From: a virus
UHGV virus genome: UHGV-0036853
DNA length: 64,000 nt
Reading direction: 5' to 3' (one strand)
The notes under the pieces are model-generated. The model was given only the letters and a program-made list of their open reading frames with translations. It was not told where the DNA came from and did no database searches. This document shows, piece by piece, positions 1,416 to 17,824 of this stretch. The stretch's first letter is position 1, and each line of letters starts with the position of its first letter. The position numbers were made by a program, and so were the translations under genes.

Positions 1416-2353
1416 TACCTTTCGAATGGAAGAACAAACACTTCAAGGTCTTCAAGGAACGAACGGAAATTCAGCTCGTAGCACAGTTGCTCGAATGCTT
1501 TCACGTCACGATTGCCTTTGATTGTTTCGATTTCGGTAGGCGGAAACTTCGTCTCAATCAGGTTCATTAGCGTGATGTTTCTCTTGAACGCTTCGAGCAT
1601 TCGACAGCCTGTTTTCTCGTTGAAGGCATTCTTCGCTAGTTTGTTGAAGGCGGTCTTATGACGCCCTTTATTAACCACGATTGAGCCGTCGTTGATGCCG
1701 CGTACCATCGTTGCGACACTTCCCCATTCATGCAGCAGCTCTTTCGCGCCGCCAGCACCAATGCCACCAACACCGCTAATGTTGTCCGAGTTATCGCCTT
1801 GTAATGCTTTTGCTTCCAAAAATGCGCGAGGCGTGGCGAATCCTGTCAGCTCCGCAAATTGCTCAAAATTAACCTGCTTGTTTTTGGCGTCTTCACGCAG
1901 GCTTACCCAGCTTACGTTTTCGCGAACTAACTGAAGCCAGTCGCTATCGCCTGTTAACAGATAGATGTGTTCAACGGTTGGCTGCGGTGCCATGCGGGAT
2001 ACCAGCAGCCCGGCCAGATCATCCGCTTCTGCATCTTTTGCAATGATTTGGTTAACACCAAGCGCGGTCATCATTTTGAGGATGTATGGCTTCTGGACAG
2101 CAAAGCCTTCCTTCATCTTTTTCATATCAGGATCGTCGTCGCGATTTGCTTTGTAGTCCGGGTAAAAGTCGCGACGCTTGTCACTAAATCCATCCCAAAG
2201 AATCATAGGTCGGGCATGGAGGATGGAGGCATAACGACGGACGTTCTTAACAAAGCCGAAAGCAGCCTGTACTTCCATTTCGCCGTTGTGCAATTTGTCA
2301 GATTGTTGGTGGTAATAACCCAGGCTATTGCCATCTACGAAGAGATAATTCAC
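1409..2353 (-). CDS. 5'-3' exonuclease / flap endonuclease (PIN plus H3TH)
   Basis: FVDGNSLGYY N-terminus, LLTGDSDWLQL and GVGGIGAGGAKELL motifs; start moved from track GTG 2404 to in-frame GTG 2353 behind GGAAGGA because a terminator hairpin lies at 2374-2397. Confidence 0.75.
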   Translation of the reverse strand: MNYLFVDGNSLGYYHQQSDKLHNGEMEVQAAFGFVKNVRRYASILHARPMILWDGFSDKRRDFYPDYKANRDDDPDMKKMKEGFAVQKPYILKMMTALGVNQIIAKDAEADDLAGLLVSRMAPQPTVEHIYLLTGDSDWLQLVRENVSWVSLREDAKNKQVNFEQFAELTGFATPRAFLEAKALQGDNSDNISGVGGIGAGGAKELLHEWGSVATMVRGINDGSIVVNKGRHKTAFNKLAKNAFNEKTGCRMLEAFKRNITLMNLIETKFPPTEIETIKGNRDVKAFEQLCYELNFRSFLEDLEVFVLPFERYC

Positions 2354-2413: not shown

Positions 2414-3436
2414 TTACAGAGAGTCCAGCTCTCTCAGTAGGTCATCCAGACCTTCGTCTTCCGTCGCAGATGCGGCTGCTACAGATGTCGTTGCGTCTGC
2501 TTCAGACTCTTTGGCTGATGCGGCAGCAGAACTTGTTTCTGATTTAAATTCAGATTCCATTGCTCGCAGAACTTCTTCATCAACCAGACTGGTTGGTTCA
2601 GAAGCTGGAGTGTGGGCGGTTGCTACAGCCGTCGCTCCTTCCGTATGACCAGTGATCGAGCCAAATCCAGGCAGTGCAGAGGCCGATGTTTTCGCTGTTG
2701 AGGAAATTGCTGGTGCCGATGCAGTGGCAGTTGGTGCAGCGATGCCAATCAGACGACCCATAGTGCGAACTGTCGCAAGAAGGCGAGTTTCATCGGCCTG
2801 ATTCACATAAGCAATCAGGTCATGTTGGTTGTTCCAGAATTTATCTTCGATATCACCTTTGAAGACTTTACGTTTTGGTGAAACGTCATATTCTGTATCG
2901 CGACCAGAGCCTGTGCGCTTAATTTGAAATGCGTAACCTTCCTCTTTGCTTAATGGATTGCCGATATCGTCAGCGATGTCTTCGGTGATTGCTTTGCAGA
3001 TATCATCGAACACAGTGGAAGGCAGTTCGATTAACTGACATTTCTCTGCATCGGAGAAATCCTCACGAGTTGAAAGAATGCCGTTTACCAGGTAGCGAGG
3101 GGTTGCACGCATTTGACCGATGCGCTCTTCCATTGCTTTGTTACCCTTGTGACGAGCGCGACCTTCCATCACCATTTCGCATAGCTGACAAGCGCGACCG
3201 TGAGTATGTTGCTCACAAATATAAGCATTGGTTGCTTCTTTACCTTCCTCGTTCTGATACTTAATGTAGTGCATACCAAAAGTCTGGAAGAACTTACCAT
3301 TCGGGTCGTCTTTATTAGGGAAGATGCGGATATAGTTGATGCCGTCTTTTAAGCGGGTCAAATCAGTGTTTTTGCCACGTTTGGCGGCAATGTCTTCACG
3401 AGTTTTGTTAAGCAAATCAAGTAATGTCTTAGACAT
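2414..3436 (-). CDS. gp32-like single-stranded DNA-binding protein
   Basis: YIRIFPNKDDPNGKFF N-terminal block, His-x17-Cys-x8-Cys-x2-Cys zinc pattern, acidic C-terminal tail. Confidence 0.55.
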   Translation of the reverse strand: MSKTLLDLLNKTREDIAAKRGKNTDLTRLKDGINYIRIFPNKDDPNGKFFQTFGMHYIKYQNEEGKEATNAYICEQHTHGRACQLCEMVMEGRARHKGNKAMEERIGQMRATPRYLVNGILSTREDFSDAEKCQLIELPSTVFDDICKAITEDIADDIGNPLSKEEGYAFQIKRTGSGRDTEYDVSPKRKVFKGDIEDKFWNNQHDLIAYVNQADETRLLATVRTMGRLIGIAAPTATASAPAISSTAKTSASALPGFGSITGHTEGATAVATAHTPASEPTSLVDEEVLRAMESEFKSETSSAAASAKESEADATTSVAAASATEDEGLDDLLRELDSL

Positions 3437-3553
3437 GTGTTTCTCCTTGTTGTGATTTGGCCGATGGCGCTATGCGCGTTGGGCTTTCGTTCATTCGTGG
3501 CTCTTTCGAGCTGTTAAATGATAGATCAGTACTTACTTATTATCTATCAAAAA

Positions 3554-14956: not shown

Positions 14957-15865
14957 ATGATTGGTAAGTTGTCTGATTCTTTGATTGAAAATAAATACAA
15001 CGAATTTAGAGAAGAAATATCTTTACTTTTTGACTATTTAAATCAGATAAATGATACAACAAAGAAAAATATAAAACGTCTTCTAAAAGAAGTGGAGTAT
15101 GCACAGAATCCAGATACTATTATTAATATTAATGAAACTATTAAGATTAAGTGTGGCACAACGTTAGCTCGCCATTTATGTTCAAACCCATATACAGGTT
15201 CAACATTAGAGATAGGTAACAGCGCCATTGATTTAGAAGAAAAGATAAGATTGTGTAATGTTTTGAAGAATAAACAATATCAGTGGGTTATTACTGAAGC
15301 CTATGAGTTACTGGAAGACTATATTGAGGCAATATATGTCTATACTGTATGTGTTCGAAATGATTTCTGGTCCTCAAGTAATTTTGGTAAGGTTGAAGAT
15401 GATGACATTGGGAAAGGGGAAGTTTATTACAAATTATTAAAAGCAAAAAGTAACCCATCGAAAAAAATAATTAAAATTTTCAGAAATAAAATACCTGGCT
15501 TCAAAGAGATAGAAATAAACAACAAGATTGGTAAAAACTATCGCTTTAACATCAAGCTAATTGAACTACTAAGACATACAATAGTACACAATAGTGGACG
15601 ATTCAATGATACAGAAAAATTTATAAATAAGGTTTTAGATGAATCTGAAATAAACGGTAAGAAAAGAGTTATTGGAGAAAGAGCTGTTAGAAGTTACATT
15701 GCTAAAGTGCAAGAAGATGATATTGTAATGCTCTTAGAAAGACCATCTGAAATTTTTGGTTCTTTTGGTGGTTATTTTAACAGAGCAAAATTTTTACTAA
15801 GTGATATTTTAGAATACTCACTAATCATTAAAGAAGAACTAAAATCATATCTAGGCAATCATTAA
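14957..15865 (+). CDS. AT-rich accessory protein, possible HEPN-type (Abi-like) protein
   Basis: 302 aa, low GC by eye, Rx4H motif RHTIVH, own terminator; functional call is weak. Confidence 0.4.
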   Translation: MIGKLSDSLIENKYNEFREEISLLFDYLNQINDTTKKNIKRLLKEVEYAQNPDTIININETIKIKCGTTLARHLCSNPYTGSTLEIGNSAIDLEEKIRLCNVLKNKQYQWVITEAYELLEDYIEAIYVYTVCVRNDFWSSSNFGKVEDDDIGKGEVYYKLLKAKSNPSKKIIKIFRNKIPGFKEIEINNKIGKNYRFNIKLIELLRHTIVHNSGRFNDTEKFINKVLDESEINGKKRVIGERAVRSYIAKVQEDDIVMLLERPSEIFGSFGGYFNRAKFLLSDILEYSLIIKEELKSYLGNH

Positions 15866-15869
15866 CAAA

Positions 15870-15896
15870 AAAAGGGGCCGAAGCCCCTTTGAATTT
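15870..15896 (+). terminator. intrinsic terminator
   Basis: ggggccgaagcccc hairpin followed by T-rich tract. Confidence 0.7.
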
Positions 15897-16044
15897 TGCG
15901 CTGAAAAAAGTGTTGCTAGGATGTTAGCAAGCTATGGTTAAGAACGTCTGCCGTAATTGTCTATCACAGCGTTGAGCGGTCTGGTTTATGTTAGCGGAGT
16001 CTTAATCTGGGTGATTAAAAGGCCAAACCGCTCAACGCTGTGTC

Positions 16045-16131
16045 TGGCGGAGAGTAATGGAATCGAACCATCATCGCTTGCGCAATGGGACGGTTTTCAA
16101 GACCGCTTGAGCACCATGCTCCCTACTCTCC
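16045..16131 (-). tRNA. tRNA-Ser (anticodon UGA), long variable arm
   Basis: cloverleaf by hand: acceptor GGAGAGT/ACTCTCC, anticodon loop CTTGAAA, T-loop GGTTCGATTCC, encoded CCA. Confidence 0.7.
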
Positions 16132-16799
16132 GGCCGTTGTGGTGGCCGGTACTGAATCTCCGGCATACGGTGCAGCCAATTAGGACTACGGACGATCACC
16201 GCTCGCGAAAGGGAAGATTTGCGGCCGCATTTCCCTAACATCCAAGAAAGCTATCGCATCAGTCTGCGAATCCACCACAACGGAAAGAGCATTCACGTCT
16301 CGCGTGCCACCACGAATGGCAACTCAGAGAGTCGAACTCTGAAAATGCTCTTACCTGTTGTGTGCTGTGTCACTCCCTCCGCTATTACCTGGCTTTGCCT
16401 CGACCTTTTAGGTTGCGTCCGATGATAAACAGGGCTGTCGGAAATTTGTCTGTGACACAGCGATAAGAGAACTCGATGCATTTAAGCCAAGCCCCATATG
16501 GGAAGTTCTCTTATCTGTTGTGCGCTCCGTTTCGTGGAGCTAACGGCGGGTGAACAGGCCGCACCAGGTTGGACATATTTCAGCGTTATGCTGTTGCAAG
16601 AGAGCCAAATTGTGATGGTCGGTGCTGAACTCCGACACAGGGTTGTAGCAAGCCCCGCAAAGCGCGCACTACTGTAGTTGCGGCACATCAGCCTGTGCAT
16701 TCACCACAATGTTGAGAACACTGGTTGTCACGCTGCAACGCAACATTTATTCATAGATTGGGATATGACCCCGTTACGCCAATGTTCTCAATATTATGT

Positions 16800-16875
16800 T
16801 GGTGCCGGTTAACGGACTTGAACCGCTGACCATTCGCTTACAAAGCGACTGCTCTACCAACTGAGCTAAACCGGC
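16800..16875 (-). tRNA. tRNA-Thr (anticodon UGU)
   Basis: acceptor GCCGGTT/AACCGGC, D-arm TAGCTCAGTTGGTAGAGCA, anticodon loop TTTGTAA, T-loop GGTTCAAGTCC, CCA. Confidence 0.75.
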
Positions 16876-16879
16876 AATT

Positions 16880-16966
16880 TGGTGGGGAGTGATGGAGTCG
16901 AACCACCCGAGTCGCAATGACAGTAGATTTACAGTCTACCCCGCTACCCCTACGGACTAACTCCCC
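16880..16966 (-). tRNA. tRNA-Tyr (anticodon GUA), long variable arm
   Basis: acceptor GGGGAGT/ACTCCCC, anticodon arm GTAGA-CTGTAAA-TCTAC, T-loop GGTTCGACTCC, CCA. Confidence 0.7.
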
Positions 16967-16971
16967 TAAAT

Positions 16972-17046
16972 TGGCGATGGTGGGTGGATTCGAACCACCG
17001 ACCAGTTGGTTAACAGCCAACTGCTCTACCGCTGAGCTACACCATC
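16972..17046 (-). tRNA. tRNA-Asn (anticodon GUU)
   Basis: acceptor GATGGTG/CACCATC, anticodon arm GTTGG-CTGTTAA-CCAAC, T-loop GGTTCGAATCC, CCA. Confidence 0.7.
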
Positions 17047-17824
17047 AATTCGGCACTGCCAGTATTTATTACTCAACAGTGCCAATCGCGACGGTTTAGT
17101 TTCTGCCAGGAAACGCACCGCTACTTGCACTTTTCGTTAGTGCCAGACGCTTTCGACTTCGCTCAATAGTAGAAGGCAAACTCTTTAAGTAGATGATGTT
17201 TCTGAGGACAGCACCTACTTTGTAATTTATACAATGTGATGTATGGAATCATTTGTTGTGAAAACAGGCACCAATGGCAACAGTGGTTAAACCTACACAA
17301 CTATTCTGTCTTCACAACGTTGAGGCCACTACTCCGATTGAATGTTTGCCCAACATGTTACATATCAACGCTCGCCGGTATCTCTGTGAATAGAACCTTA
17401 GAATTGATAAAAATGTAATGGCCTCAACGTTGTGTGCTGGCTAACCATACCAGCCGGGCTACGTCGCCGCTTTTTAACCCAGTATAAACGACATAATTGA
17501 ACAAAATGACGTAACAGAATGGGCGGTCAGTGGCTAAGAATCCGGGAGTCATATGGAGTTGAAAATATACCGACCGCCCATTCTGTTACTTCATCGGAGG
17601 GAACACTCATGTTCCCTCCTGCGTTCTGCAATCACACTCGCTCAGTGTGTCCCATTTCGGTAACGAGGCTGGAAACTGACCTCGCTGGTGTTTGGCTTAT
17701 TAGGCTACTGCCAGATAGACTTCTTCGTTTGCACTTGTATTTAAGTTCAAACAGTCGCGTCTCAACGAAAACAAAGTCATCTTATACACAAAAGATAAGT
17801 AAGTAAATACTTATCAATATGTTT

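Follow-up and report, generated by a model that had tools for sequence, protein, structure and literature searches.

The interval considered here lies between the transfer RNA (tRNA) genes for serine and threonine in the virus genome UHGV-0036853, of which one stretch of 64,000 nucleotides (nt), hereafter the window, was analyzed. A preliminary description, made from the letters alone, had presented positions 16140-16800 as a stretch free of credible open reading frames (ORFs) with tRNA-like fragments, and had proposed degraded or intron-containing tRNAs, or other small RNAs that defied folding by eye. Our analysis has shown that the interval is a non-coding, modular array of structured RNAs. 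Its non-coding nature, its strand, the boundaries of its modules, helices with compensatory change, a mosaic distribution and an STnc100-like scaffold in one of its two kinds of module were all established. The closest DNA matches around the interval were Escherichia coli phage-plasmids.

A predicted untranslated tRNA operon and its array

As the preliminary description had stated, the interval is flanked by tRNA-Ser and tRNA-Thr; ARAGORN placed both on the minus strand, which puts the stretch between them on the predicted tRNA transcript. Read in RNA sense, the order is cassette H6, tRNA-Asn, tRNA-Tyr, tRNA-Thr, a 668-nt array (16132-16799), tRNA-Ser, cassette H0 and a terminator (Table 1). 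The terminator is a strong one on the minus strand, and a scan of the region found no promoter-like site within the spacer, nor was a promoter of the operon located. Based on these observations and the four minus-strand tRNAs, we infer that the region is a single, co-transcribed, untranslated minus-strand unit that would begin to the right of 17434 and end at 15871, a span of at least about 1.6 kb. The minimum free energy of 16132-16799 was -234.7 kcal/mol on the minus strand (z = -4.1), and the plus strand gave z = -2.0 (20 shuffles each). The anatomy of the array was read from the inverted repeats of the window and from the spacers of 14 related loci in RNA sense. The repeats in the interval belong, as arms, to long inverted repeats (I2, I6, I7, I10 and I12), and hundreds of phage and plasmid records share these arms. 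The arms delimit two kinds of element, which we call S cassettes and M modules.

Table 1. Positions of the operon's features in RNA sense, followed by the dT cassette of related phages
Feature	Position	Strand	Description
S cassette H6	17313-17434	minus	Upstream (RNA sense) of tRNA-Asn; stem CACAACGUUGAGGCCAUUAC / GUAGUGGCCUCAACGUUGUG; interior of about 80 nt
tRNA-Asn	16972-17046	minus	ARAGORN; 4-5 nt gaps among the three tRNAs
tRNA-Tyr	16880-16966	minus	ARAGORN
tRNA-Thr(tgt)	16800-16875	minus	ARAGORN
S cassette H5	16702-16801	minus	Variant stem UUGAGAACAUUGG / CCAGUGUUCUCAA; interior hairpin GGGGUCAUAUCCC; inverted repeat I2
M module M-b (type M2)	16609-16710	minus	Closing helix AUUGUGGUGA / UCAUCACAAU; variable core
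Spacer X	16523-16608	minus	Leader hairpin GCUCCACGAAACGGAGC at 16524-16540, preceding the next S cassette
S cassette H4	16456-16522	minus	Stem CACAACAGAUAAGAGAACU / AGUUCUCUUAUCGCUGUG; interior ...GGGGCUUGGCUUAAAUGCAUCGAG; inverted repeat I7
Link module	16363-16455	minus	Closed by GCUGUGUCAC / GUGACACAGC (16364-16373 with 16452-16461); inverted repeat I12
S cassette H2	16276-16362	minus	18-bp stem CACAACaGGuAAGAGCAUU / AAUGCUCUUuCCGUUGUG closing a cloverleaf-like four-way junction with three hairpins
M module M-a (type M3)	16132-16281	minus	Closing helix GUUGUGGUGG / CCACCACAAC; inverted repeat I6
tRNA-Ser(UGA; tga)	16045-16131	minus	ARAGORN; atypical
S cassette H0	15965-16042	minus	Directly after tRNA-Ser; stem CACAGCGUUGAGCGGUUUGG / CCAGACCGCUCAACGCUGUG
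Intrinsic terminator	15871-15890	minus	AAAGGGGCUUCGGCCCCUUU + UUUUG; terminator scan, strong; closes the predicted tRNA/non-coding RNA operon
dT cassette	L136 (Stx2a_WGPS2, NC_049941) 2001-2135		Also in L089, L092, L135 and L137-L141; heads early-left operons

The absence of credible ORFs was borne out, as the longest ORFs overlapping 16140-16800 on either strand had 59-93 amino acids (aa) and no Pfam match. Homologous DNA in the records of P1, RCS47 and JL22 is annotated with small plus-strand proteins, Upl (63 aa) and Plp (125 aa, "putative lipoprotein"), and a 59-aa Upl-like ORF lies at 16498-16677 of the window. A coding role is nevertheless scarcely credible. Plp starts at TTG and runs antisense into trnT, and its length in homologues is 27, 44, 81, 125, 131, 139 or 143 aa as cassettes come and go. 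D6, P7 and others lack the DNA for the N-terminal part of Upl, no Pfam family reached its cutoff (best E-value 0.078), and the homologous stretches are almost all unannotated in the listed plasmid and RefSeq E. coli records, the plasmid gene tables being incomplete. Since neither ORF is conserved among relatives, upl and plp are probably not genes. In P1 itself (L001, NC_005856) the two lie antisense over S and M modules, at 2979-3548 of our locus or 69472-70041 of the record. Literature keyword searches on P1 upl/plp and the ban operon, in which the P1 genome paper was not covered, returned nothing specific, and a P1vir RNA sequencing preprint made no mention of the array region.

Two scaffolds with exchangeable interiors

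In RNA sense, an S cassette takes the form 5'-(R)CACAAC(A)GGUAAGAGCAUU ... interior ... AAUGCUCUUACCGUUGUG-3', or has stem variants such as CACAACGUUGAGAACACUGG. The stem comprises 18-23 base pairs (bp) with an invariant CAAC/GUUG base, while the interiors, of about 30-130 nt, are unrelated. Cassettes were collected by a hairpin finder with an arm-similarity filter, and stem pairs were counted by a purpose-written script since a MAFFT alignment of the arms misplaced a bulged A. Among 49 distinct arm pairs, the four CAAC/GUUG pairs were invariant and positions 7-19 showed 2-7 standard pair types each, with 88-100% paired. Position 10, for example, was A-U in 25 and G-C in 11, and position 14 was G-C in 30, A-U in 5 and C-G in 5. 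Two exact ctcttaYctgttgtg blocks that had been noted earlier (16348-16362 and 16508-16522, 0 mismatches; other matches in the window all have 3) were confirmed and are the RNA-sense 5' arms of H2 and H4, the second "ctcttaTctgttgtg" block belonging to H4.

The stem also distinguishes the two strands. Its G-U pairs exist only in the tRNA sense and become A-C mismatches on the opposite strand; position 17, for instance, was C-G in 16, U-G in 14 and U-A in 8. In 41 of 52 unique tRNA-linked cassettes, the tRNA-sense fold was more stable than the antisense one (Wilcoxon p = 1.4e-7, a generous value as the cassettes are partly related). These results bear on the idea that the modules are DNA-level repeats, that is, palindromic recombination hot-spots or mobile elements (like miniature inverted-repeat transposable elements, MITEs, repetitive extragenic palindromic elements or attC sites) that insert by tRNA genes and whose RNA structure is incidental. 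The near-perfect inverted repeats, some of them fully palindromic (L020, L033), the shuffled module order with breakpoints at conserved arms, and an insertion of H4 plus the link bounded by direct arm repeats would all suit such elements. However, neither the U-G pairs at position 17 (14 of 40 cassettes) nor the better tRNA-sense fold would be expected of them; the interiors contain conserved hairpins that covary, every element points the same way as the transcription unit around it, no integrase or transposase was consistently near in the contexts examined, and the interior is unrelated in each cassette, unlike a MITE family. Taken together, the strand asymmetry, the co-orientation and the structured interiors favor RNA over DNA elements, and we consider a purely DNA-level role unlikely.

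Clustering sorted 91 unique cassettes into about 37 interior types. Representatives of five of the 37 had a T-arm-like hairpin (5-6 bp stem, UUCRANY loop), against 0.1 expected from shuffles; thus, "tRNA-like" is true of a minority of cassettes only. These five types make up three independent families, one of which includes H2. Hairpin A of H2, UCAGAG-UUCGACU-CUCUGA (16324-16342), has a 6-bp stem and fits the UUCRANY loop; hairpins B and C follow it. In an alignment of H2 with type-c relatives, 7 of 33 pairs were changed on both sides and still paired, though only two lineages were represented. The tRNA-like fragments of the preliminary description stand for one module, H2, which bears this T-arm-like hairpin. 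Its T-loop-like GAGTCGAACTC segments were borne out only in part: one exact copy was found, at 16329-16339 in hairpin A, but no second exact copy in the interval to justify the plural. The genuine T arm of tRNA-Tyr (16895-16905) comes next, with 2 mismatches, and at up to 2 mismatches the 11-mer was not enriched in the window (10 matches versus 14 expected).

Could these be decayed tRNAs after all? The T-arm-like hairpins of H2 and two other cassette families, the four-way junction of H2, and the position of the cassettes inside a tRNA cluster, in array slots like those of tRNAs, all recall tRNA genes. The arrangement does not, as cassettes have a stem of 18-23 bp against a 7-bp acceptor, the arms are in the wrong order, and an acceptor, D and anticodon layout is missing. 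In H2 the T-like arm adjoins the 5' strand of its 18-bp closing stem, not the 3' strand, and no 7-bp acceptor. ARAGORN and the Rfam tRNA-clan models were empty in the interval even at E<=10, and modules are 90-99% identical across hundreds of replicons with compensatory changes, which indicates selection and not decay. The degraded or intron-containing tRNAs suggested at first are thus very improbable. The other suggestion, small RNAs, fared better, as the interval holds structured non-coding modules with conserved helices.

Another interior type, dT, was found outside the window, in a cassette of about 130 nt. Within its S stem lie a pair of T-arm-like hairpins, a central hairpin that is variable and a G-rich strand that is conserved. 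Among 11 phages, 13 of its 36 pairs showed compensatory change, and the central hairpin covaries. No Rfam match was obtained for the dT cassette at E<=1.

The remaining S cassettes of the operon differ in how much variation they offer. H5, the outer pairs of which take in the last bases of the CCA end of tRNA-Thr, had 16 unique variants with 37 consensus pairs, 7 of them with one-sided changes, and 92% identity to P1 69716-70019. H4 is a copy, though a diverged one, of the P1/P7 cassette that occurs most often, and two compensatory stem pairs set the window copy apart from the other 12 of its 13 unique variants. H0 corresponds to inverted repeat I1 (20 nt, 95% complementary) and had one compensatory pair among 6 variants. 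H6 was found 10 times in SSU5-like loci, and RNAalifold gave 40 pairs on 3 variants. Spacer X is structurally the weakest part, as it is kept in 7 unique variants, including P1, with 21 consensus pairs and no compensatory change.

M modules are built differently. They begin with GUUGUGGUGAAU and a hairpin GCRCAGRCUGAUGYGC and end with a hairpin CCGGAGAUCAGCACCGG and YCAYCACAAY. The scaffold is therefore a closing helix with two constant end hairpins around a variable core, and the helix re-uses the GUUGUG/CACAAC hexamers of the S type. In 11 modules of nine interior types, the 19 pairs of this skeleton were 90.4% paired, with 10 changed on both sides; none of 500 shuffles reached this level, and slid controls were 23-50% paired. 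A covariance model, R1, was built from M1-M7 only, without STnc100-like sequences, and used to search 186 kb with a rough E calibration. R1 recovered M modules on which it was not trained in EPP-1, L087, sal3, F1055, Sodalis and a metagenome-assembled genome (MAG). Across 28 distinct R1 hits the skeleton was 94.8% paired and 10 pairs were changed on both sides, in an alignment that was fitted to the model. Overall, the compensatory changes in the S and M scaffolds were spread over dozens of phages. The preliminary description had held that a lack of covariance-model hits would speak against small RNAs here. Such a lack was true for Rfam, as none of the Rfam 15 families (including ROOL, GOLLD, YrlA and STAXI) matched in the interval at the gathering score or at E<=10, and weak YrlA matches fell only over true tRNAs. 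It was overturned by R1, which found both M modules of the array as well as the untrained relatives.

M-b (end hairpins GCACAGGCUGAUGUGC at the 5' side and CGGAGUUCAGCACCG at the 3' side) scored 94.5 bits with R1 (E 2.7e-20), and M-a (CGCAGACUGAUGCG and CCGGAGAUUCAGUACCGG, with the 3' end 4 nt ahead of the tRNA-Ser 5' end) scored 110.9 bits; both modules were in the training alignment. M-a is 96-97% identical to D6 and P7. The link module has the closing helix only, without the two end hairpins, and its only full-length match among the loci compared was itself. H4 plus the link form an insertion in comparison with the close relative CMS-2020a CP054387 (L004, which lacks 16367-16508). This insertion is bounded by the two ctcttaY repeats, as recombination between cassette arms would predict.

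The palindrome around GCGGCCGC described earlier was also present as stated, with GGGAA at 16211-16215, GCGGCCGC at 16221-16228 and TTCCC at 16231-16235. It forms a core hairpin of M-a (16211-16235), where a GGGAA/UUCCC stem displays the 8-nt self-complementary GCGGCCGC, and is kept in D6, P7 and two other loci. This hairpin could allow loop-loop dimerization. Separately, lambdoid-like contigs (L089 3650-3830, L033, L087) carry a conserved module of about 190 nt, GUUGUGGCGAAAGCC...GAAUCGUACACAAC, between two S cassettes, which differs from the M scaffold modelled here.

Mosaic distribution and kinship with known RNAs

The flanks of the interval match Escherichia phage CMS-2020a and Cyrano, which are SSU5-like, and most of the spacer matches P1, P7 and D6. 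The P1 counterpart sits in the C1-repressed ban operon, between trnT and tciA. The spacer between tRNA-Ser and tRNA-Thr is only 8 nt long in Cyrano, against 668 nt here; other relatives have 224-490 nt and a Salmonella plasmid has 938 nt, and the modules are reordered among them. Pieces of it occur in 700 plasmid records, of which only 2 cover at least 80% of the spacer, and also in Stx phages; pieces of a related locus occur in 1,537 RefSeq E. coli genomes. Module order and number differ among P1-like plasmids, SSU5-like plasmids and lambdoid prophages. A scan of IMG/VR viral contigs for the S 3' arm yielded 54 true cassettes; it used a 14-mer, and about 57% of its matches were due to chance. 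A 20-mer scan of one genome per species returned 5 loci. One was a chance match in Clostridium symbiosum, and the true cassettes came from Escherichia, Lonsdalea, Sodalis and an Enterobacterales MAG. More S-type cassettes, with stem variants CAACAGGUAAGGGCGCUGG... and CAACAUUAAGGAGGC..., were seen upstream of the tRNAs in P1 (L001, 3878-3954) and D6 (L002, 4528-4592), the former between trnA and the dicF-like region. The modular array of P1-like phages thus extends to both sides of the tRNA block.

Many cassettes belong to phages without a nearby tRNA. There they come first in the early-left operon, directly preceded by a CI-like repressor gene and followed by a hypothetical gene and a DUF2303/YfdQ or rdgC gene (Stx2a_WGPS2, phiNP, 118970_sal3, EPP-1 and F1055 are examples). 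This location raises the question of cis-acting antitermination, in which a nut-like element (boxA plus a hairpin) or a put-like one makes RNA polymerase resist Rho or terminators. A nut site of the lambda type has a single-stranded boxA (YGCUCUU(U)A) and then a boxB hairpin, and works with an N-type protein. The put RNA of HK022 has about 70 nt and two stem-loops just downstream of PL or PR. The lambdoid cassettes occupy the nutL/putL position, with the CI-like repressor and the early-left promoter region just ahead of them and a terminator-like hairpin behind. A boxA-like word, UGCUCUUAC or UGCUCUUUC, stands in the S 3' arm and is followed 13 nt later by a 5-bp hairpin; published boxA sequences are UGCUCUUUA in rrn and CGCUCUUA in lambda, with nutR continuing CGCUCUUAC (PMC2724277). 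In the arms of H2 the word lies at 16283-16291 (minus) and 16346-16354 (plus). However, it is paired within the stem instead of single-stranded, shows no enrichment in the window (8 occurrences versus 4.9 expected), and is replaced in variant arms with compensation on the other arm (GUUCUCAAC, GGCCUCAAC, CUCCUUAAU). No N-like arginine-rich ORF was seen beside cassettes. The putL of HK022, recovered with the primers of PMC9378689, shows neither S nor M arm motifs, and its two-stem architecture differs from that of the cassettes. As the word is neither enriched nor conserved among variants, the boxA/nut reading was not adopted, and antitermination appears distinctly unlikely as the role of these modules.

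A known relative was found for the M scaffold. At E<=1, the Rfam family STnc100 (RF02076, gathering score 47) matches the last M-like module before tciA/terB in P7 (43 bits) and P1 (33 bits), as well as the dicF-dicB spacer of the K-12 Qin prophage (34 bits), where DicF (RF00039) scores 76.7 bits 12 nt upstream. R1 matched exactly these three loci at full length, with E-values of 0.018, 0.036 and 0.12. Similar to M modules, STnc100 has a closing helix (..UGGUGAAU / CACCA..) with a hairpin right after its 5' strand, a variable center, and a CCGGNNNCCGG-type hairpin immediately before its 3' strand. On these sequence and model comparisons, the M scaffold is a distant relative of STnc100 and PasD at the level of the scaffold. 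Those two are Hfq-bound small RNAs of lambdoid prophages in Salmonella and pathogenic E. coli that have a shared ancestor and scaffold and differ in their seeds and targets (Zhu, Shabalina, Storz, bioRxiv 10.64898/2026.05.13.724894; Pearl Mizrahi et al., PMC8550237). No function has been established for STnc100 to date (PMC12370729). Of 5,426 complete E. coli genomes, 4,673 carry the STnc100-like M element.

The dicBF locus of Qin offers a second comparison, since there too an early operon of a prophage has an untranslated leader from which small RNAs are cut. The P1 record annotates a "dicF-like region" in the ban operon, which carries the P1 counterpart of the array. In contrast, the K-12 dicF locus has no intact S cassettes, only a GGUUGUGG remnant, and DicF (RF00039) gave no match in the window, with K-12 as the positive control (76.7 bits). 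In a K-12-like genome (L148) the STnc100-like M module lies at 1491-1631, between the dicF terminator and the dicB start codon, and is unannotated in RefSeq. DicF was reported by Faubladier et al. in 1990 to be made by RNase III- and RNase E-dependent processing. The 15-bp closing helix of the Qin module is a candidate RNase III site for the processing of DicF. The array would thus be in part a known prophage small RNA lineage (STnc100/PasD and the DicF locus) and in part undescribed (S cassettes and dT); the PasA and PasC sequences were outside this comparison.

Other phage RNAs resemble the array in setting. The stable RNAs C and D (species 1 and 2) of phage T4, and other phage substrates of RNase P that are not tRNAs (the M3 RNA of phi80 and the c4 RNA of P1/P7), are small stable RNAs that lie in or beside a phage tRNA cluster, or on a precursor, and are matured by tRNA-processing enzymes. 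We know of no function for T4 RNAs C and D. All of these are single genes, whereas the array belongs to a scaffold family with exchangeable interiors, and they have no link to it by sequence or model. ROOL and GOLLD are large structured non-coding RNAs that often lie beside prophage tRNA genes. They are single RNAs of 500-800 nt, mainly from Firmicutes and metagenomes, in contrast to arrays of 65-150-nt modules, and their Rfam families gave no match at E<=10 in the window region or at E<=1 in related loci. Integron attC sites were considered and rejected. CACAAC/GTTGTG fits the RYYYAAC/GTTRRRY cores at only 5-6 of 7 positions (judged by eye) with no central bubble, no ORFs lie between the sites, and no integron integrase was present in the contexts examined.

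Predicted processing, possible roles and neighboring features

Based on these observations, our favored reading is that the interval is the core of an untranslated minus-strand tRNA/non-coding RNA operon, in which autonomous S (H5, H4, H2) and M (M-b, link, M-a) modules alternate and are processed to trans-acting small RNAs. Taken as a whole, this reading could equally well prove right or wrong. Modules and tRNAs are 0-6 nt apart. In most P1-like loci an S cassette begins 1-2 nt past the CCA of tRNA-Thr, and in SPN9TCW the GUUGUG of a dT cassette is directly joined to the 5' end of tRNA-Arg. Because modules and tRNAs abut so closely, we predict that cuts by RNase P at tRNA 5' ends, followed by trimming of tRNA 3' ends, would together set the ends of the modules. 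The 18-23 bp S stems and the 10-15 bp closing helices of M modules are candidate sites for RNase III or RNase E. Cleavage may then free each module as a small, stable, end-protected RNA. The variable interiors would act in trans, as base-pairing seeds like those of the related Hfq-bound STnc100, PasD and DicF, and in T-arm-bearing cassettes possibly as tRNA-mimicking surfaces. The constant arms, for their part, may provide homology for recombination between phages, by which cassettes could be swapped, duplicated and deleted between phage families.

Several points weigh against this reading. We infer co-transcription, the processing enzymes, stability and function in trans from the features described above, and the high identity of the arms could stem from recombination rather than function. 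The same GUUGUG/CACAAC hexamers are needed for both the S and the M helices, which therefore cannot both form fully. In the last cassette of P1 the same compensatory change keeps both pairings (GUUGCG with CGUAAC and with CGCAAC), which could reflect alternative folds or simply concerted evolution. The antisense fold of H4 is slightly the more stable (+1.5 kcal/mol), and in M-a, H6, X and the link sequence variation is too low for a test of the internal helices. With regard to the STnc100 lineage, M-a and M-b gave no RF02076 match even at E<=10, and the E-values of R1 on STnc100-like loci are borderline (0.02-0.12). Unlike STnc100 and other Hfq-dependent small RNAs, M modules have no terminator or poly-U tail and lie inside a tRNA array; a terminator scan found no site after M-a or M-b and one weak site inside M-a, which is its 5' hairpin.

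Another reading of the close spacing is that the modules are punctuation in cis, the stems and end hairpins of which guide tRNA maturation or shield the transcript from exonucleases or Rho, with the interiors as filler. Gaps of 0-6 nt between modules and tRNAs, the pairing of H5 with the CCA end of tRNA-Thr, scaffolds far better conserved than interiors, and an untranslated run of about 1.6 kb or more are all consistent with this, and a stem of 18-23 bp is about the size of an RNase III substrate. However, some interiors (dT, H2) are conserved with compensatory changes across distant phages, and cassettes also head lambdoid early-left operons without any tRNA. Further, Cyrano has tRNA-Ser, tRNA-Thr and tRNA-Asn without the spacer, which indicates that the array is not required for tRNA maturation. 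A role purely in cis is therefore possible but doubtful.

Returning to processed, trans-acting modules, we can speculate further on the S cassettes. They may represent an undescribed "scaffold-and-cargo" class of RNA in temperate enterobacterial phages, in which an invariant stem displays dozens of interiors, including dT as a double-T-arm mimic of the tRNA elbow, that phages swap to manipulate host tRNA processing, tRNA-sensing defense or mRNA targets. The S and M helices, which exclude each other, would then form a co-transcriptional switch that chooses which RNAs are released. This extension is rather unlikely to hold in full. If true, the favored reading would give temperate phages a concrete route to evolve and trade small RNAs, via recombination at constant arms, and would supply many candidates, some of them tRNA-mimicking, for phage control of host RNA metabolism or defense. 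Two scaffold families with exchangeable interiors would link the leaders of DicF loci, STnc100, PasD and the "spacers" of phage tRNA arrays. The observations also matter for annotation, since modules are present in most of the complete E. coli genomes sampled, and in the records listed they are almost always unannotated or under doubtful ORFs (such as upl and plp in P1). In addition, the scaffold could serve synthetic biology for stable RNA expression.

Among the neighboring genes, tRNA-Asn, tRNA-Tyr and tRNA-Thr scored 75.5, 41.9 and 69 bits, respectively, with the Rfam tRNA model RF00005. The tRNA-Ser(UGA) fell under the gathering score of RF00005, and its top Rfam score (46.6 bits) was with the tRNA-Sec model RF01852 (gathering score 47). 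As drawn by ARAGORN, it has a 3-bp D stem and a long variable arm, and the D6 record remarks that tRNAscan-SE would not assign an amino acid to its counterpart there. Past the operon, a 302-aa ORF on the plus strand (14957-15865) ends at the bidirectional terminator that it shares with the tRNA operon. It had no Pfam or PADLOC match, and its GC content of 26-33%, against about 47% for the region, makes it resemble foreign cargo beside the tRNA array.

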